A DNA stretch of 64,000 nt from Alphaproteobacteria bacterium (GTDB lineage: Bacteria > Pseudomonadota > Alphaproteobacteria > CALKHQ01), in assembly GCA_965227515.1 (NCBI GenBank), contig CBDDFZ010000001.1, forward strand, positions 192,001 to 256,000, in the 5' to 3' direction. Below are positions 1 through 6,808 of this stretch, piece by piece (positions within the stretch are counted from its first letter, which is position 1; each line of letters opens with the position of its first letter). The notes under the pieces were generated by a model, which was given only the letters and a program-made list of their open reading frames with translations, was not told the origin of the DNA and did not search any database. The translations under genes were made by a program, and so were the position numbers.

Positions 1-334
1 GGCCACGGTCGCTATCGACAATTGGGGCCCGCGCGCCATCGACCTGACCGTGACCGCCGAGACCGATACGACGGTCACCGTGAAGCAGTTCTATTGGCTG
101 GGCTGGCGCGCCCGCGGTGCCCTTGGCGCACCGGTGGAGCTGTCGCCCTCGGCACCCGACGGGCTGGTGACGTTCGACCTGCCGGCCGGCCGCCATGTCA
201 TCGAACTCCGGCTGCGGCCGATCTGGGCCGAACAGTACGGTTCGGCGATCAGCGTGGTGGCGCTCCTCTGCCTCGCGGCGCTGGCCGCCCAGGTCGGATT
301 CGGCGGACGCGCGCAACGTCGGCAGCAGGGTTGA
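1..334 (+). CDS. 3' end of a membrane protein (YfhO/glycosyltransferase-associated-like C-terminus), partial
   Basis: Open frame from the window edge to TGA 334: ...QFYWLGWRA...GLVTFDLPAGRHVIEL... followed by a C-terminal TM helix. Confidence 0.55.
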   Translation, partial: ATVAIDNWGPRAIDLTVTAETDTTVTVKQFYWLGWRARGALGAPVELSPSAPDGLVTFDLPAGRHVIELRLRPIWAEQYGSAISVVALLCLAALAAQVGFGGRAQRRQQG

Positions 335-382
335 TTTCCCGGCGCCGGATGCCCATTATTGTCGTTTGGCGAATGCCACTGC

Positions 383-458
383 GTCCCCATCGTCTAGTGG
401 CCTAGGACATCGGCCTCTCACGCCGAAAACAGGGGTTCGACTCCCCTTGGGGACGCCA
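383..458 (+). tRNA. tRNA-Glu (anticodon CTC)
   Basis: Acceptor stem GTCCCCA/TGGGGAC, anticodon arm TCGGC-CTCTCAC-GCCGA, T-loop GGTTCGACTCC, encoded CCA; 76 nt. Confidence 0.97.
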
Positions 459-1971
459 TCTTGCTACTACCCCCCTTCAGCTGGTCCAAAACCCAGAAGG
501 GAAGCGACTTTCCGGCGGTTCGAACTCCGCCGTTTCGCGCATAGGCGGGTCTTTCGGCAAAAACCAGTTTCAGGGCCGTCCGCCTGTCCTCGAGCCGCTC
601 CGAAATCCAGAGTTTCTGCGGGTTTCGCAAAAAGCTCATGGCGGTTCGAAATCTCTCATCAAAGCTTTGCGGCGCTACGCCGCGCTTGCGGGTTTGTCCG
701 TCCAGCTCGGCCCGGCGTTCCTCCAGCGAGCGGATGCGGTTCTCGTAGGCCGCGATCACGGTCTCGCTGCTCGCCGCCATGATCCGGTCGAGCAAGGCTC
801 CGACCTTCTGCTCAATTCCGGCCAGCTCTGCCTTGGCATCCCGGACCTGCTCCTCCGCGTCGGCGTTGTGGCTGTCCCACAGCTCCCGGAACAAAGCCAC
901 GGCCTGGTCCGCCGCCTCCTCCGTGGGACAGAGGGCGCGCATCTCCTCATCGAAATCGCCTTCCAGCTTCTCGCGGCGGATGGACTTGCCGTAGCTGGCG
1001 CAGCCCTTCGTCGGGCAGAGATAATAGGGATACTGCCGAGCGCGCCCGCGCGAGTAGCAGGCGGTTAGCGGTTTTCCGCAATCGCCGCAGAGCACGAAAC
1101 CCCGCAACGGGAAGCTCTCATGCAGGTCCTTGCGGGCGGGCACCCTGGCCCCTTCCTTCAAGCGGCGCTGAATCGCCCGAAACGTGTCGAAACCGATGAG
1201 CGGTTCGTGCTTGGCAGGCTGGAGCCGCACGCTCCAATTCGCCAGGTCGATATATCCGGCGTAGAGCGTGTTGGTCAGGATGTCGGTGACGCGCTGATTG
1301 CGGATTTCGCCCCGGCTGTCGCGCGGGAACTCCGGGTGCGCGGCTAGGAAGCGCTTGACCTCGGCCTGGGTGTCGAAGCGTCCGCAAGCAAATCCCTCCA
1401 GCGCCTCGGCGACGATGGAAGCCAGGGGCTCGTCCCGGACCATCATCTTGCCGTGGCCGGAAACGCGCTCGAAGCGGTAGCCGAAGATCGCGCCAAACAC
1501 CCAGTAGCCGTTCATGGCCCGCGCCCGCATGCGGTTGCGGGTCTGCTCGCCGTTCTTCTGGCGCTGGTGTTGGGAGACTGAGGCCAACATGTTCTCGACC
1601 AACTGGCTGTCGGAGTCCTCGCCGAACTCGATGGACGGGGACTCCAGCCTGCCGCCGACCGACCCAATGGCGCTGCGCAGCTTGAGATGAGCTTCCAGGC
1701 CGCGCGCCAGGCGGCTGATGTCGTCGATGATGACGGCGCAGCTCTGCCCGCCCTGGCGCTTGAGGAATTTGAGCATGGCTTGCATGCCGGGACGGTCGAT
1801 CAGCCCGCCGGATACGTCGTCCCGGAAAACCTCGATCACCCGGTAGCCCTTGTACCTGGCATATTCCCGGCAGCGGGTTTCCTGGGAGGCGAGGCCGTCG
1901 CCCTGGGTGGTCTGCTTGGTGCTGGAGACGCGGCAATAGATCACCGCGCTTTGCTGGGTATGGGTCTTCAT
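418..1971 (-). CDS. Large serine recombinase (integrase)
   Basis: YCRVSS catalytic Ser motif, DDISRLAR, recombinase domain, Zn ribbon CGDCG...YYLC...C, coiled coil; last 13 codons overlap the tRNA antisense strand. Confidence 0.95.
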   Translation of the reverse strand: MKTHTQQSAVIYCRVSSTKQTTQGDGLASQETRCREYARYKGYRVIEVFRDDVSGGLIDRPGMQAMLKFLKRQGGQSCAVIIDDISRLARGLEAHLKLRSAIGSVGGRLESPSIEFGEDSDSQLVENMLASVSQHQRQKNGEQTRNRMRARAMNGYWVFGAIFGYRFERVSGHGKMMVRDEPLASIVAEALEGFACGRFDTQAEVKRFLAAHPEFPRDSRGEIRNQRVTDILTNTLYAGYIDLANWSVRLQPAKHEPLIGFDTFRAIQRRLKEGARVPARKDLHESFPLRGFVLCGDCGKPLTACYSRGRARQYPYYLCPTKGCASYGKSIRREKLEGDFDEEMRALCPTEEAADQAVALFRELWDSHNADAEEQVRDAKAELAGIEQKVGALLDRIMAASSETVIAAYENRIRSLEERRAELDGQTRKRGVAPQSFDERFRTAMSFLRNPQKLWISERLEDRRTALKLVFAERPAYARNGGVRTAGKSLPFWVLDQLKGGSSKMASPRGVEPLFSA

Positions 1972-2035
1972 CGCTTACGTCTTTCCGCCGCCGGATGACC
2001 GGGCGGCCTGTCTCATGTGCTCCTTGTCGATTCTA

Positions 2036-2856
2036 GGGCCTGTTGAGATTCATCGCGAGTTTATGACAGCTGCTGCGAGATGGATGATGGCGTTGAAGCT
2101 TGTGTCGGTTTTGTCTGCACGCATGGCGATTCGCTTGAACTCTTTGAGTTTGCAGAAGAAGTTTTCGATCAGATGACGCCATTTGTACATCTCGGCGTCG
2201 ATTTGCAGCGGGCTGGCGCGGCGCGGATGCTGGGATATGACGATCTTGGCACCGCGCTCGTTGAGGTCAGCAACGATGGCGCTGGTGTCGAACGCTTTGT
2301 CCGCGATCATCGCCTTGAAGGAGAGTCCGTCGATGAGCGGCGGCACGCCAACCGTATCGTAGCGATGGCCGGGCAGGAGCACGAAACGCACCAGATTGCC
2401 AAGCGCATCACACAGCGCGAGGATCTTCGTCGTCATCCCGCCCTTGGAGCGGCCGATGGCCTGGCTTTGAGTCCCCCTTTTGCGCCCTGGCCGTGGCGGT
2501 GCACCTTGACAATGGTGGCATCAACCATGGCGTATTCCATGTCCGGCTCGTCCAAGCAGGCCTCGAACAGCCGCACGAAGACGTCTGCTTTGACCCAGTC
2601 GCGGTATCGCTTAAAGACCGTGTTCCAAGGGCCAAAAGATGTCGGGAGATCACGCCACGGGCTGCCCGTACGCACCACCCACAGCACGGCTTCGACAAAG
2701 CGCCGGTTGTCAGCGCCACTGCGGCCCGGATCGCTCGGCTTGCCCAAGCAATGGGGTTCCATCTTCGCCCATTGGGCGTCACTCAGTACGAATCGTTCCA
2801 TCCGAAGCTTGAATCACAACCAAGCACGGAGAGGAATCCTGAATCTCAACAGGCCT
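2036..2856 (-). mobile_element. IS5-family element (IS427-like), copy 1
   Basis: Terminal IRs GGCCTGTTGAGATTCA / TGAATCTCAACAGGCC, flanked by TA, two-ORF transposase. Confidence 0.92.
2050..2801 (-). CDS. IS5-family transposase (orfA 2433-2801 + orfB, probable programmed frameshift at AAAAGGGGG)
   Basis: orfA LSDAQW...RTGSPWRDLP...WNTVFKRYRDW; orfB ADKAFD...YKWRHLIENFFCKLKEFKRIAMR. Confidence 0.9.
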
Positions 2857-2858
2857 TA

Positions 2859-3906
2859 GAGCGGGATCGTTTTATGCGGAAGCGTATCCTGCATTGACGA
2901 TGTAGTTGTTGCATTCGTGTGGCTGGAACGCGTCGAGTAGTTTTCCGATACGCCGCCATGTGTCGTCGATGGTGCGCTCTGCGGCGCGCCTGAGCAGGTG
3001 CTTGAGCTTGGCGAACACCTGCTCGATGGGATTGAGGTCGGGGCTGTAGGGCGGCAGGAAGAGCAGCCTTGCGCCGGCCTGGCGCAGGGCGGCCCGTACG
3101 GCCTTGCCCTTGTGGCTGCCCAGGTTGTCCATGATGACGATGTCGCCGGGTTTGAGCGTCGGCACCAGGATCTGCTCGACATAGGCGAGGAAGGCCTGAC
3201 CGTTAATCGGGCCGTCGAAGACGCACGGTGCGGTGAGCTGGTCGCAGCGCAGGGCGGCGAGGAAGGTCAGGGTGCGCCAGCGGCCGTGCGGTGCCTTGCC
3301 GACGAGGCGACGACCGCGCCGGCTCCAACCGCGCAACGGCGCCATGTTGGTCTTGGCCCAGGTCTCGTCAATGAAGACCAGGCGGGCGGGATCAAGCTTT
3401 GCCTGATGACGCTTCCAGCGCGCGCGCCGCCGCGCCACGTCGGGACGATCCTGCTCGCTGGCCAGCGCGGTTTTTTTTGAAGCTCAATCCCTCGGCATGC
3501 ACAAAGCGCCAGATCGCGCCGTAGCTCACCCGGATGCCGCGATCGGCCAGCTCGCGCTGCAAGGAGCGCAAGGGAAGGTGCGGCTCGGCTGCCAAACGGG
3601 CCTGCACGAAGTCGCGATGCGGCGCCAATATGATCCGCTTGTGGCCACCGACCTTGCCCGGCGCAACACTCCCGGTGCGCCGATACCGCTGCGACCACTT
3701 CACAACCGCAGACACGCTCACATCGAACGCGGATGCCACAGAGCGAACCGTCTCACCGGCCATCACCCGGGCAACAGCACGCTCACGAAGATCATTCGAA
3801 TAGGGTCGACCCATCGCGCCAGCCTCCTCTCAAGACCAACACGTTGAATCAGATTGCCACCCGAGTCGGGAATCCCCTTTCGATTCTTCCAAAAAAGACC
3901 CCGCTC
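2859..3906 (-). mobile_element. IS630-family element, copy 1
   Basis: Ends GAGCGGGATCGTTTT / AAAAGACCCCGCTC, TA on both sides, 1048 bp. Confidence 0.92.
2872..3814 (-). CDS. IS630 transposase (HTH orfA + DDE orfB, frameshift at A8 run)
   Basis: MGRPYSNDLRER HTH; VFIDET, IMDNLGSHK, LPPYSPDLNPIE DDE motifs; TTCAAAAAAAAC slippery site. Confidence 0.92.
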
Positions 3907-4204
3907 TAGGCCAACGGACCAGGTGTTTGAATCGCCGTCCTTACCGGCGGCACGCTCGCCAGTGTGCGAATGTCGCCGACAGCCCTGGCATTGCGGGCCT
4001 TTGCGCCCCACTCTAAATCATGTGGATAAGGGGTGCCTGCACCCCTGCCCTCCGGCGAGGATGGGGGTAGCAAGTGCAAGGAGGCTCCGAACGAGGGGCC
4101 CCGCAAAGCGGGGAGACGTTTGGATGCCTTGCGCGCGCGAGGGGCGAAGCCCCTTAGTGGACAAGAAATACTGACAGGATAGCAAAGCATGCACAGTAGA
4201 AATT

Positions 4205-4243
4205 AATCTTCAATCGAAGATTTTTGATGGTACATTTGAGCTA
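4205..4243 (+). promoter_or_regulatory. Putative sigma70 promoter (extended -10) with overlapping palindrome; probably leaderless
   Basis: TTCAAT 4209-4214, TGgTACATT 4228-4236 ending 6 nt before the ATG at 4243, AATCTTC-N4-GAAGATT 4205-4222, no SD. Confidence 0.4.
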
Positions 4244-4956
4244 TGGCAATTTCACCGAGGTCAATAAAGATTCTCTGGGCTAATGCTGCGGGACGCTGCT
4301 CATTTGCCGGATGCCTCGAAAAGCTCTGCTTTGGCGAGGCTGCGGACCGCGCGCCGTTCACGCTAGGAGAAATGGCACATATACGCGGAGAACGACCGGG
4401 TTCAAACCGGCATGACCCAGATCAATCACCAGATGAGCGCGATAACTATTCGAACCTGATTCTGTTATGCCCAACTCATCATACGCTCATTGACAAGAAA
4501 GAAAATGAAGCCGAGTACACTGTTGACGTTCTCCACTCCATGAAAGAAAAGCATGAATATTTTGTCCTGGAGCGGCTAGATCGTATGAACGTGAAAGATA
4601 GAGCCGAACTCGTGGCCGAGATACATCGACTTCTTGCAGAAGATCGTGTTGTATGGGAACGATTTGGGCCACTTTCGGACCTCGCGCGGAAAAACCCTCA
4701 TAGCGACGAAGCCCATGCTGTCTGGGTTTCGGAACGCCTTTCTACCATCGTCCCGAACAACCGCCGGATTGTTGAGCTGCTCCGGGAAGGCCATGGATGT
4801 TTTGAGGCGGCCGACCAAGGTGCCATTTCACTATTTTTGATTCACTCCAGGAGCTATGAGAAATGGGTAAATGACGAAATATCCTACGAAGCAGTAGTTC
4901 GTTTCCCGCAGGAGTTCAACGAAATGATCGAGAGGTATGTTAATGCCAGCGTATAG
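4243..4956 (+). CDS. HNH endonuclease with uncharacterised C-terminal domain
   Basis: LWANAAGRCSFAGC...GEMAHI...NLILLCPTHHTLID, like the HNH domain of Cap5-type effectors; C-terminal GP..W..IVPNN..FP domain is too short for SAVED. Confidence 0.85.
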   Translation: MAISPRSIKILWANAAGRCSFAGCLEKLCFGEAADRAPFTLGEMAHIRGERPGSNRHDPDQSPDERDNYSNLILLCPTHHTLIDKKENEAEYTVDVLHSMKEKHEYFVLERLDRMNVKDRAELVAEIHRLLAEDRVVWERFGPLSDLARKNPHSDEAHAVWVSERLSTIVPNNRRIVELLREGHGCFEAADQGAISLFLIHSRSYEKWVNDEISYEAVVRFPQEFNEMIERYVNASV

Positions 4957-5353
4957 CGATGAGTTTCCGTGGCCGAGCCATTACGGTCATTTCAATTTTT
5001 TTGAAGAAAGAATGTCTGAACATGGTGAAGTCACATCATATGAATATTTAGGCGATGGCCTATACAATATTGCTAGAGACGATGGGGGTGAGCTAAGGGT
5101 ATTTATTTGCGAGTGCTACAGTTATGGCATGGCTGAATATGAGGAGAGTGTGCAAGCGCATGGAAATATTGACGCAATTATCATCAATTCGAACTGGTGC
5201 GGCTATACGCCGGAACTAAAGAAACATTGCCGAGAACGAGAGGTCGGGGTATTTAACATCAGGGATTTTATGGCTGCACTGAATCGAGAGAAATATTGGC
5301 TCTATTTGAGCGAAGACGAAAAAGACCAGTTCGAACGATTGGGCTGGATTTAG
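4943..5353 (+). CDS. Hypothetical protein, possible Mrr-like restriction-endonuclease fold
   Basis: SD GAGAGG before ATG 4943, overlaps the HNH stop; C-terminal IDAIIINSNWCGYTPELKKHCREREVGVF pattern resembles the Mrr_cat end. Confidence 0.6.
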   Translation: MPAYSDEFPWPSHYGHFNFFEERMSEHGEVTSYEYLGDGLYNIARDDGGELRVFICECYSYGMAEYEESVQAHGNIDAIIINSNWCGYTPELKKHCREREVGVFNIRDFMAALNREKYWLYLSEDEKDQFERLGWI

Positions 5354-5658
5354 TGGAAAATGTAACGGTATACGGATTTGGTTCATATTTTCGGGGCAGT
5401 AAGTTTGCAGAAGATATTGATATTTTGTTGCTTCACGAAACCACGTCTAAGAAGTCAATAAGCTTTGCCTTGCGGTGCAAGTCGCATATTCTATCAATAT
5501 TACAGAACAGTCATATTACAATTCTCTCCATCGCGGAGGAATCTCAAGTCCGCTTCATTGAGGCGTCCAGGGGGCAGTTTCTTGGACAAGTCAGTGAGGG
5601 TAGGTTTGATGAGGACATGCGGGCAATCGGTGAGAAGATTGCCTCCCAAACAACTTGA
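5353..5658 (+). CDS. Minimal nucleotidyltransferase (Pol-beta superfamily)
   Basis: GTG start overlaps upstream stop (TAGTG); VYGFGSYF...EDIDILLL (GS + DxD); 101 aa. Confidence 0.8.
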   Translation: MENVTVYGFGSYFRGSKFAEDIDILLLHETTSKKSISFALRCKSHILSILQNSHITILSIAEESQVRFIEASRGQFLGQVSEGRFDEDMRAIGEKIASQTT

Positions 5659-5708
5659 GAACGCAAGGGAGTGATCTCGAATACCGCAACGAGCCGGGGG
5701 GATGCAAC

Positions 5709-5764
5709 GGGGGGCGGCACGCCCCCCTTGCCAAGATGGTGTTGTAGTACAACACACATCTTGC
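5709..5764. other. oriT-like double hairpin
   Basis: GGGGGGCG-GCA-CGCCCCCC, then CAAGATGGTGTTGTA-G-TACAACACACATCTTG (15-bp arms, one bulge), ending CATCTTG^C, similar to the MOBP nic consensus YATCCTG^Y. Confidence 0.5.
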
Positions 5765-5832
5765 GGAACGCCTTAATCTCAGCTCCCATGCAGACCCGGC
5801 CCATGTGAACCGGATGTGCGCCTCAGTGTGTC

Positions 5833-5952
5833 TCAGCCGTCGCTCTGGTCATAATCCATAGAATCTGACAGCGCAGTGCCCCCCAGCAGCCTATTCCAGT
5901 CCTCCAGCGTCTGGAACAGGGTGTTCGAACAAAATCCTCTCGGGGACGCCAT
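5833..5952 (-). other. Displaced 3' segment of the recombinase gene (attP-form C-terminus) at attR
   Basis: Reads MASPRG-FCSNTLFQTLEDWNRLLGGTALSDSMDYDQSDG* in the same register as the recombinase MASPRG at attL. Confidence 0.75.
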
Positions 5953-5983
5953 TCGACGCCCAAAGTGTTGATGGCGCGTTTTT
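5947..5983 (+). terminator. Possible native tRNA terminator displaced by the island
   Basis: CGCCA-T-TCGACGC / GTGTTGA-TGGCG hairpin followed by CGTTTTT. Confidence 0.35.
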
Positions 5984-6085
5984 CCAGACAAGCTGCTGCT
6001 TACTGAGCCTCCTGCTGGTACAGAGTGGTGGTGCCGGCCGGGCGGTCGCGTTAAGACTCAGCCAAGGGGCGCAGGATGCTGCGCC

Positions 6086-6808
6086 TTGCGCAGACCAACG
6101 CACCTGACCGGACGCGACGTGTCGACTGGACTGACCACCGAAGCCAAGGATGTCCTGCAGAAGACGGCGCTGATGTCCGCCCTCTCGGCGGAAACGGCGG
6201 CGCTCATCGCGTCCACCGCAAACCAGGTCACCTACAGCCGCGGTGCGACGATCTTCCATCGCGGCGATCCGGTAAGCGCGTTTTATGCCGTGGTGGACGG
6301 CTGGGTGAAGATCAGCCGGGTCACGCAGACAGGCAACGAAGCGGTGCTGGCGGTCTACACCCGTGGCCAGAGTTTTGCCGAGGCCGCGGTCTTTCTGTTC
6401 GGCGCCTACCCCGCCAATGCAGAGGCCGCTTGCGACACGACCTTGGTCAAGGTGCCGAGCAACCCACTGAAGGACCTCATCCTCGCCAAGCCGGACATCG
6501 CGCTGGCGATGCTTGGCTCGATGTCGCGGCATCTGCATGAACTAGTCGGCGATATCGAAGCCCTGAAGACCAGGACCGGCGTGCGCCGCGTCGCAGATTT
6601 CCTGTTGTCCCTGTCGCGTATCCCGGAGGGCGGGGAGACCATAATGCTGCCGTTCGAAAAGAGCCTGATCGCCGCCAAGATCGGCATTACGCCGGAAAGC
6701 CTGTCGCGGGCGTTCTCGCGCCTACGCGGCATCGGCATCGAGGCGCGGAACGGGCACGTCGACATCGCCGATGTGTCGGCGTTGCGCGCTTTCGCCAAGG
6801 GCGACTAG
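6086..6808 (+). CDS. Crp/Fnr-family regulator (NnrR/DNR-type, no Fe-S Cys cluster); start uncertain
   Basis: cNMP-binding-like domain, HTH ITPESLSR (ExxSR), adjacent to nos genes. Confidence 0.9.
   Translation: MRRPTHLTGRDVSTGLTTEAKDVLQKTALMSALSAETAALIASTANQVTYSRGATIFHRGDPVSAFYAVVDGWVKISRVTQTGNEAVLAVYTRGQSFAEAAVFLFGAYPANAEAACDTTLVKVPSNPLKDLILAKPDIALAMLGSMSRHLHELVGDIEALKTRTGVRRVADFLLSLSRIPEGGETIMLPFEKSLIAAKIGITPESLSRAFSRLRGIGIEARNGHVDIADVSALRAFAKGD

Follow-up and report, generated by a model that had tools for sequence, protein, structure and literature searches.

The 64,000-nt stretch of DNA analysed here (the window) comprises positions 192,001-256,000 of contig CBDDFZ010000001.1, from the genome of an Alphaproteobacteria bacterium (CALKHQ01; assembly GCA_965227515.1). 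Positions 460-5952 of the window are a small genomic island of 5,493 bp, which a large serine recombinase (LSR) has inserted at the CCA 3' end of a tRNA-Glu(CTC) gene. With high confidence, the attachment site of this element (attP) spans the last codons of the recombinase gene itself: integration exchanges the C-terminus of the enzyme, and the exon for the alternative C-terminal tail is left stranded at the far junction of the island (attR). This architecture is real and widespread; it was not described for this family in the literature searched, and its nearest precedent is DsiB, a serine integrase of Dehalococcoides.

Island boundaries and empty sites

The tRNA-Glu(CTC) gene (383-458, plus strand) was detected with ARAGORN and is the sole tRNA gene found in the window; it is intact, and its 3' part constitutes the host half (B') of the left junction, attL. 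The ends of the island carry a direct repeat (442-459 and 5935-5952, start-to-start distance 5493 nt) that is identical at 16 of 18 nt, and in which an exact core of 11 nt, GGGGACGCCAT, occupies positions 449-459 at attL (repeat D8, which includes the CCA end) and, by repeat comparison, positions 5942-5952 at attR. The CCA-containing core is likely the crossover region. The two mismatches of the repeat (CCA/CCG and AGG/AGA) are each synonymous in the frame of the recombinase, as had been claimed in a preliminary description of this DNA made from the sequence alone.

Empty sites were sought by aligning the contigs of four public runs (X1, X2, X3 and X6) to positions 200-6300 of the window. In one contig of X3 and in one 3786-nt contig of X6, position 460 was fused to position 5954, exactly 5493 nt being skipped. 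These runs derive from two other organisms and from two studies, and represent related organisms with an empty tRNA-Glu site, in which the right flank directly follows the tRNA; no such joint was present in the contigs of runs X1 or X2. The G+C content falls to 0.43-0.50 at 4200-5800, versus 0.62-0.70 in the flanks. An empty site was also sought by synteny in 40 related genomes, among which the right flank was matched only in one genome of the same family (G001) and one of the same class (G040), with a tRNA gene adjoining neither match.

An 11-nt repeat by itself is within chance in this region, where 31 direct-repeat families were counted within 5.9 kb, and an open frame of 34 codons is likewise unremarkable, taken alone, at a G+C of about 57%. 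Repeat and frame were considered to be more than chance because of the contigs with the exact skip, the dip in G+C, and the recurrence of both the architecture and the tail peptide across the recombinase family.

The recombinase and its two C-terminal ends

The recombinase gene (418-1971, minus strand) encodes in its integrated form a protein of 517 aa, which by its domain order is a large serine recombinase with predicted catalytic activity. Pfam searches placed the Resolvase domain (PF00239, E 2.6e-27) at residues 9-156 and detected Zn_ribbon_recom (PF13408, E 4.6e-09) above its cut-off, whereas Recombinase (PF07508, E 0.0014) scored 19.3 bits, just under its cut-off of 21.1. Residues 226-322 matched the C-terminal domain of the A118 integrase (4kis/6dnw) in a phmmer search against sequences of solved structures, in which TP901-1 and TnpX matched the catalytic domain, and PHROGs assigned the protein to an integrase family. 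Residues R14 and S16 are invariant across an alignment of 32 sequences (A1), S16 being presumably, by analogy, the catalytic nucleophile. A long coiled-coil is predicted in the AlphaFold2 (AF2) model of a homologue, L097, rather than of the window protein (helices 347-366, 368-395 and 399-425; per-residue confidence, pLDDT, 74-93), and is followed in that model by a further small C-terminal domain.

The integrated open reading frame (ORF) ends in ...GGSSKMASPRGVEPLFSA. From a Met codon at 457-459 onwards it is the reverse complement of the acceptor/T-arm part of the tRNA, and its final 13 codons (Met + 12) overlap the tRNA gene. At the other end of the island, a tail exon of 39 codons and a stop (MASPRGFCSNTLFQTLEDWNRLLGG...; 5833-5952, minus strand) shares the reading register of the recombinase ORF across the core: the minus strand from 5952 to 5836 reads MASPRGFCSNTLFQTLEDWNRLLGGTALSDSMDYDQSDG, with the stop at 5835-5833, and the exon matched a tail profile in a search of its own genome (E 3.1e-12). 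A circular form of the island would thus encode 504 residues up to ...SSK followed by these 39, i.e. 543 aa, as compared with 517 aa in the integrated form. The preliminary description had proposed that the end of the ORF is read off the antisense strand of the tRNA, that attR continues in the same register, and that the two forms measure 543 and 517 aa; coordinates, translation and codon counts bear out all three. Its central claim, that attP lies inside the gene and that integration swaps the C-terminus, is supported by the register, by the empty sites and by the architecture of the family.

Targeting of tRNA genes across the family

Homologues of the recombinase were retrieved at E<=0.001 (3155 proteins among 8000 candidates scored), and the best 120 (56-64% identity, the window's own protein apart) were examined. 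The motif M[AV]xxxG[FILV]E[PL], which is a tRNA 3' end read backwards, terminates 112 of these 120, many of the proteins continuing across the whole tRNA, and a circle-type tail was found in none of them. Family-wide, the integrated ends are whatever the tRNA antisense strand and the host flank encode, over 3 to more than 270 residues. For annotation purposes, the 112 entries among the best 120 should therefore be read as the chromosome-encoded form with an artefactual, tRNA-derived end.

Eighty LSR loci were then taken from one-genome-per-species contigs with a flank of about 10 kb each. An opposite-strand tRNA in the identical register, the A of the Met codon being the base after CCA, was present in 63 loci; one more (L024) adjoins a tmRNA, giving 64 of 80 at a tRNA or tmRNA, and among the remaining 16 are contig ends and loci in which no tRNA was detected. 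The targets are chiefly tRNA-Arg genes (five anticodons), with Glu, Ala, Leu, Ser, Tyr, Val, Thr and Lys genes also represented. Counting positions from the A of the Met codon, TGG stands at +2 to +4 and the T-loop positions +20 and +22 to +25 are invariant in all 64 attL sites compared (the 63 loci and the window). The architecture defines a large family of LSRs whose targets are tRNA genes of many kinds and tmRNA.

Two arrangements at individual loci were recorded. Three elements (L045, L054 and L055, with attR near 5890, 5304 and 3905, respectively) carry a near-identical element arm and tail, MVEVSGDTSN[QR]LFE..., and are inserted at tRNA-Tyr, tRNA-Leu-TAA and tRNA-Val-GAC, with which their arms share only ATGGTGG; this suggests a relaxed target choice within one attP type. 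At a tRNA-Met gene (L069:3324-8905), a tandem consists of a full LSR ending in a tRNA-like fragment, a tail exon 1.5 kb further on, and a remnant LSR C-terminus adjoining the tRNA, an arrangement that resembles the island accretion described at Dehalococcoides ssrA.

A conserved tail at the far end of related islands

Searching for attR by DNA repeat failed to discriminate (best scores 5-12, versus 6-11 for reverse-strand controls), and tails were therefore sought with a peptide profile built from candidate peptides. A loose regular expression for the tail had also been tried and was dropped, with 19 matches on the LSR strand versus 12 on the other. With the profile, the window and nine loci were matched on the LSR strand with E from 3e-13 to 3e-17, the next match having E 0.41. 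In seven tRNA-abutting loci (L016, L020, L045, L054, L055, L062 and L066) the tail lies 3.6-8.3 kb upstream of the LSR start, while in L081 the LSR frame runs unbroken into the tail inside a chromosome contig; the ninth locus is the tandem L069. The motif M[AV]xxxGE[TS]SNxLFxxLxxWxxxL recurs at the far island end in eight loci. Among ten further genomes, seven have a strong tail (E<=7e-12) on the LSR strand, 12-29 kb upstream and, as inferred from coordinates, on the same contig. The homologue comparison suggested in the preliminary description was thus positive, a conserved SNxLFxxLxxW tail being present at the attR of related LSRs.

The genome to which the window belongs holds three tail copies: that of the window, that of a complete second island of the family (hereafter island 2), and one orphan. 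Island 2 (G000 C1:2743722-2762577, about 18.8 kb, loci L099 and L102) has an LSR (C1:2761003-2762529) that is 56% identical to that of the window and reads into a tRNA-Arg(CCT) gene, and its tail lies 17.3 kb upstream of the LSR. Its genes are ordered as tail, NikA-like and relaxase-like ORFs, cargo, a conserved small ORF, and LSR. The orphan tail (L104, C1:1590120-1590245; ...GFGSNILFQTLEEWSRLLEDNSLSNSMDYD, then a stop) closely resembles that of the window, with similar DNA after it; the genome search revealed no family recombinase in its vicinity.

On a larger scale, a 34-position tail profile retrieved 592 clusters at E<=0.001 among 1.84 billion representatives. The listing of 150 clusters holds 149 ORFs, 29-223 aa in length, that follow the consensus M[VA]xxxGE[TS]SNxLF[ED]xL[EA][DE]W[NE]xxL[KQ], and one false match to a repeat protein. 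These ORFs are stranded tail exons as seen by gene callers, and can serve in annotation as markers of the far end of an island. Uninterrupted forms also exist: P0193 consists of an LSR C-terminus (aligned to residues 324-510) that continues directly into the tail, and L097, one of 13 viral contigs with a family member, has a 533-aa ORF that continues without interruption into a variant tail, no tRNA being found in the stretch examined. The contrast drawn earlier between a hydrophobic LFSA end and an acidic DQSDG end did not survive this comparison, since integrated ends are arbitrary and circle tails are conserved in the helix motif and not in their last residues.

Selection on the tail and recognition of the attachment site

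In tail columns 1-7, identity is 0.57/0.59/0.54 at the three codon positions, and the Ser-Asn codons 9-10 read TCG AAC almost without exception, at all three positions. In the motif columns 8-20 the corresponding values are 0.65/0.70/0.47, the third position being the lowest; the codons of Leu12 and Leu16 include CTG, CTA, CTT, CTC, TTA and TTG, and those of Phe TTC and TTT. The segment LFxxLxxWxxxL covers nt 34-69 from the Met codon, beyond a half-site of 25-30 bp. Because leucine codons vary synonymously and third positions are the least conserved, the amphipathic motif SNxLFxxLxxWxxxL is selected as protein. Codon usage thus indicates that the motif from codon 11 on is maintained by selection on the protein, and that TCG AAC and columns 1-7 are the signature of a DNA site.

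The hexamer TCGAAC (the T-loop antisense) occurs on the minus strand at 435-440, that is +20 to +25 from the A of the Met codon, where it is a candidate zinc-ribbon-domain motif of the host half-site. In the element half-site (P') it occurs on the minus strand at 5923-5928 (+25 to +30), 5 nt further out than in the tRNA, and encodes the invariant Ser-Asn of the tail. The same positions, +20 in attL and +25 in attR, were found in nine of nine attL/attR pairs, whose identity blocks measure 3-12 nt and include TGG (CCA antisense) in every pair. For the LI integrase, the zinc-ribbon-domain motif is reported to be displaced in attB by 5 bp towards the centre, as compared with attP (Rutherford et al., PMC3783163). 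We infer that the host half-site is made of universal tRNA features, the CCA end serving as crossover region and TCGAAC of the T-loop as zinc-ribbon-domain motif, and that the element half-site mimics a tRNA 3' end with TCGAAC placed 5 bp outward, which on this one arm would be the canonical attP/attB distinction. Such mimicry by the element arm would explain how one family is able to use many tRNAs.

The upstream ORF and the mobilisation genes

A conserved small ORF lies directly upstream of the LSR in 77 of 93 related loci (L005-L097) and ends at a median of 27 nt before the LSR start (e.g. L045:9669-10001; in island 2, which keeps it, L099:1100-1483). Its consensus is DxxKYxxxxxxxDLTxxQKxExLxxLWxIMxxFVDxGFGVxP, with no Pfam family above threshold, and its product is a candidate partner or recombination directionality factor (RDF). 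No remnant of it was found in the window (best E = 5). The earlier remark that no separate RDF gene is visible therefore holds for the window island; it does not extend to the related loci, in view of this ORF.

In L016, L062, L066, L081 and island 2, the tail is followed by a NikA/MobC-like gene and a MobA/VirD2-type relaxase gene, and in L081 (ATGA) and island 2 the stop of the tail overlaps the start of the next gene. From this overlap it follows that the circle would carry an operon of integrase and mobilisation genes, which is broken by integration. The last tail codons at L081:11590-11625 and L102:1610-1620 hold a ribosome-binding site and the overlapping ATGA start of the next gene, and this overlap may be why database tails repeatedly end in ...GP[QS][PL]. 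Judging from gene content, such relatives are mobilisable islands and the window copy lacks these genes, no relaxase or accessory mobilisation protein having been detected by Pfam among the scanned ORFs of the window island. The window copy is degenerate, with two insertion sequences, the upstream ORF of the family missing and the mobilisation genes absent. Island 2, which keeps the upstream ORF and the mobilisation genes, is consequently a better candidate for experiments than this stripped copy.

A proposed directional switch

The exchange of C-termini could act as a switch, the preliminary description having proposed one of directionality or stability. On the excised circle, the ORF reads through the core into the tail to give the 543-aa long form, whereas in the integrated state it runs into the tRNA antisense strand to give the 517-aa short form. 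The tail helix would fold back onto the extra C-terminal domain of the LSR and the base of its coiled-coil, the part of the enzyme that is acted on by directionality factors in other LSRs. The long form, produced by the circle only, would be set for integration, and the short form, produced by the chromosome only, would be released for excision, possibly with the product of the upstream ORF. The long form would be the integrating enzyme because it can be made only from the circle, and the short form, alone or with a partner, would have to excise because it is the only form that a resident island makes. The occurrence of intact attR tails in hundreds of lineages shows that the cycle of integration and excision is run repeatedly.

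The predicted interaction was obtained by folding residues 1-505 of the window LSR and the tail as two chains, using our own alignments and three controls. The interface score (ipSAE) was 0.72, 0.72 and 0.71 for the tail and 0.01 for the best of the three controls; of 80 solved complexes 58 reach the docking mark, as do 2 of 110 mismatched pairs, counts that are rough here owing to the use of our own alignments. The runs share at least 81% of their contacts, with a partner pLDDT of at least 60. In the model, tail residues 7-29 (L12, F13, L16, W19 and L23) contact LSR residues 361-368, at the start of the coiled-coil, and residues 440-469 and 489-494 of the extra C-terminal domain, the contact stretches of this domain containing hydrophobic residues that are invariant in the family (alignment A1). 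In SPbeta, the essential C-terminal helix of the RDF is reported to pack between the second DNA-binding domain (DBD2) and the coiled-coil hinge, and the same article cites a role in directionality for the extreme C-terminus of SprA (PMC11722253). A beta-clamp-binding motif (QLxLF) was also considered for SNxLF and set aside, as the Q and first L positions do not fit.

Weighed jointly, the architecture and the switch form an explanation that we regard as probable, while a tail-dependent directional switch, taken by itself, is our preferred but tentative proposal, with indirect support from conservation at the protein level, from the predicted docking and from the literature on the place of action of RDFs. 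A more specific and rather doubtful version would be a one-gene, self-resetting toggle, in which the C-terminal domain and its detachable tail replace a separate RDF, the tail holding the coiled-coil in an integrative state and its loss permitting attL x attR excision. If this were true, the enzyme would carry in its own sequence a direct record of the state of the DNA that it reads, and the toggle would operate on two features that are universal in tRNA genes, CCA and the T-loop.

Several observations weigh against this explanation. The circle junction of the island was not found, the contigs of run X1 (0.93 of sampled words) showing the integrated form only, although contigs are blind to rare forms. 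Uninterrupted forms are rare, with none among PLSDB plasmids (six matches, all ending before the tail) or INPHARED phage records, and the recombinase of L081 holds two in-frame stops. Within the fetched flank, a tail was found in only 7 of the 63 tRNA-abutting loci, most islands exceeding the 10 kb fetched; of the ten further genomes, one had no tail and two had weak or misplaced matches only. As the first 10 or so codons of the tail are constrained as DNA, part of the conservation belongs to the att site, and no mirror-image TCGAAC was found in the P arm inside the gene, the shift being seen on one arm only. The docking is a model confidence obtained from our own alignments rather than a measurement, and in single-chain AF2 models the tail reached a pLDDT of only 32-47 in L097, and in P0193 62-75 for the helix and 47-51 for the linker. 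Finally, directionality could in reality be the task of the upstream ORF product, in which case no tail switch would be needed.

Alternative explanations

Among the alternatives, the one that survives best, though it is unlikely, supposes that the tail is needed for general activity or stability of the LSR: the short form would be crippled and the element locked in, with excision rare, or else dependent on a helper or on a tail supplied by a neighbouring island. The predicted packing of the tail on conserved hydrophobic residues of the C-terminal domain fits this as well, as do the tandem at L069, the uninterrupted junction of L081 within a chromosome contig, and the proposal of McMurdie et al. 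that dsiB may have its full function only when on the circle or when an adjacent island lies upstream of it (PMC3146451). The intact attR tails are harder to reconcile with a locked element, since purifying selection on them in hundreds of clusters requires repeated excision and re-integration, and the empty sites in close relatives correspond to recent gain or loss.

It is less probable again, and in fact quite improbable, that the extension serves expression, by carrying ribosomes across attP on the circle to the NikA/MobC-like and relaxase genes, which would be expressed only after excision. Such genes do follow the tail in L016, L062, L066, L081 and island 2, with the overlap of stop and start in the last two; a conserved amphipathic motif is not required for this purpose, however, and the window island and the group of L045, L054 and L055 retain the motif without mobilisation genes. 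Expression coupling is in any case compatible with a directional switch and not exclusive of it.

We give only a slim chance to a neutral overlap, in which attP would overlap the end of the gene to save space and the tail would have no function as protein, its conservation reflecting the DNA of the P' arm. The motif lies at nt 34-69, past the half-site, uses six leucine codons and is least conserved at third positions; it is kept in 149 of the 150 representatives listed, and its docking score is 0.72 versus 0.01 for the best control. These points outweigh the near-invariance of TCG AAC, the equal conservation of columns 1-7 at all codon positions and the arbitrary nature of the integrated tails, all of which speak for a neutral overlap, as does the view of McMurdie et al. 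that the overlapping part of DsiB is unlikely to be functional (PMC3146451).

Slighter still is the chance that the tail is translated separately from the ATG at attR (made by the CCA end) and acts in trans as a directionality factor on the short form. This ATG is always present, many database ORFs begin exactly there, the model docks the tail as a chain of its own, and the RDF helix of SPbeta is likewise described as short and hydrophobic (PMC11722253). The ORF starts in databases are nevertheless choices of gene callers, in-frame fusions exist (L097 and P0193), and the DNA upstream of the attR ATG is host DNA, with no consistent ribosome-binding site over nine pairs. That repeat and frame are coincidental, with no integrated element, has virtually no likelihood: thirty other direct-repeat families occur in the 5.9 kb and such open frames are common at this G+C, but the idea is refuted by the contigs that skip exactly 5493 nt and by the recurrence of the architecture in the family.

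Comparison with known systems

Two tyrosine-integrase systems offer precedents for an attachment site inside a gene. In mycobacteriophage BPs and its relatives, attP reportedly lies in the repressor gene and integration removes a degradation tag. The window LSR shares with BPs an attP in an ORF and a C-terminus altered by integration, with the difference that here the recombinase itself is altered and a conserved helix is lost. In archaeal tyrosine integrases of the SSV1 type, the integrase gene contains attP and is cut, on insertion into a tRNA gene, into two large parts and thereby inactivated, whereas the present serine recombinase loses only a tail of about 25-40 residues.

The closest likeness is with DsiB, the serine integrase at ssrA of Dehalococcoides (McMurdie et al. 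2011, PMC3146451), a precedent not named in the preliminary description. DsiB is reported to be an LSR of about 540 aa located beside attL; its gene invariably overlaps attL with its 3' end, continuing into the tmRNA gene or into the following island. Islands in tandem at a single RNA gene are described, and the authors speculated on full function on the circle only (PMC3146451). It differs in that its insertion is placed in the T-loop of ssrA rather than at the CCA end, and in being CcrB-like and paired with a second, small serine recombinase, DsiA; the overlapping part is given as divergent and no conserved alternative tail was reported (PMC3146451).

With canonical serine integrases (LI/A118, phiC31, Bxb1 and SprA of SPbeta), the family shares the resolvase and recombinase domains, the zinc ribbon with its coiled-coil, and a short core identity, and on one arm its TCGAAC, as a candidate zinc-ribbon motif, would show their 5-bp shift between attP and attB (PMC3783163, PMC11722253). 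In these enzymes, directionality is described as being set at the base of the coiled-coil, where the RDF binds; they are reported to target protein-coding genes or intergenic sites, to have attP outside the gene and to require a separate RDF (PMC3783163, PMC11722253). The window family differs by an extra C-terminal domain of about 60 residues, by its targets at tRNA and tmRNA 3' ends, and by an attP inside its own ORF. Islands of tyrosine integrases listed by Islander share integration at tRNA and tmRNA 3' ends with regeneration of the RNA gene, as well as small cargo islands, and differ by the enzyme class and by core identities of tens of nt, versus 3-12 nt here (PMC4383910). The family contradicts an older statement, found in that source, that serine integrases do not target tRNA genes (PMC4383910). 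A review of integrative and mobilisable elements places the sites of serine recombinases inside genes. In the literature searched, supplementary tables (TIGER/Islander) aside, no description was found of CCA-end or tRNA targeting by this family, or of its conserved tail.

One-way insertion of large DNA is done mainly with serine integrases; how their direction is set is under active structural study, and their reversal needs a separate RDF that is hard to find. A natural family in which integration rewrites the C-terminus of the enzyme provides a testable case of state-dependent control, with two forms, one motif of 15 residues and four candidate contact residues. The use of CCA and T-loop features suggests a route to many tRNAs, and may aid in the choice of integrases with near-universal landing sites in bacteria.

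Insertion sequences and cargo of the window island

Two insertion sequences (IS) stand back to back in the island. The first, of the IS5/IS4 family (2032-2865, minus strand; ORFs 2050-2436 and 2433-2801; Pfam DDE_Tnp_1 and DUF4096), was delimited by contig limits and depth and sits 60 nt upstream of the LSR start. The second, of the IS630 family (2857-3908, minus strand; ORFs 2872-3438 and 3392-3814; Pfam DDE_3 and HTH families), was delimited by contig limits. In run X1 the contig depth over the two IS is 150-330, versus 10-15 elsewhere in the island, which points to multiple copies, and near-identical copies occur in runs of other organisms.

The cargo consists of three successive ORFs on the plus strand, in the part of the island with the lowest G+C (0.43). 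The first encodes a protein with an HNH endonuclease domain (4243-4956; Pfam HNH_2; HNH effector and PDC-M68A models of PADLOC, E 3.8e-31) and overlaps a second (4937-5353) without family match in the Pfam and PADLOC scans, which is followed by an ORF weakly resembling Pol-beta-type nucleotidyltransferases (5296-5658; Pfam DNA_pol_B_palm, E 3e-05, just below the cut-off). By its predicted domains, the cargo segment 4243-5658 resembles a small defence module. In the stretch that separates the tail from the nucleotidyltransferase-like ORF, at about 5725-5768, the summed contig depth rises to 126 (bin 5708-5911), versus 10.7, with loose contig ends at 5725 and 5768, and this segment may be a small dispersed repeat.

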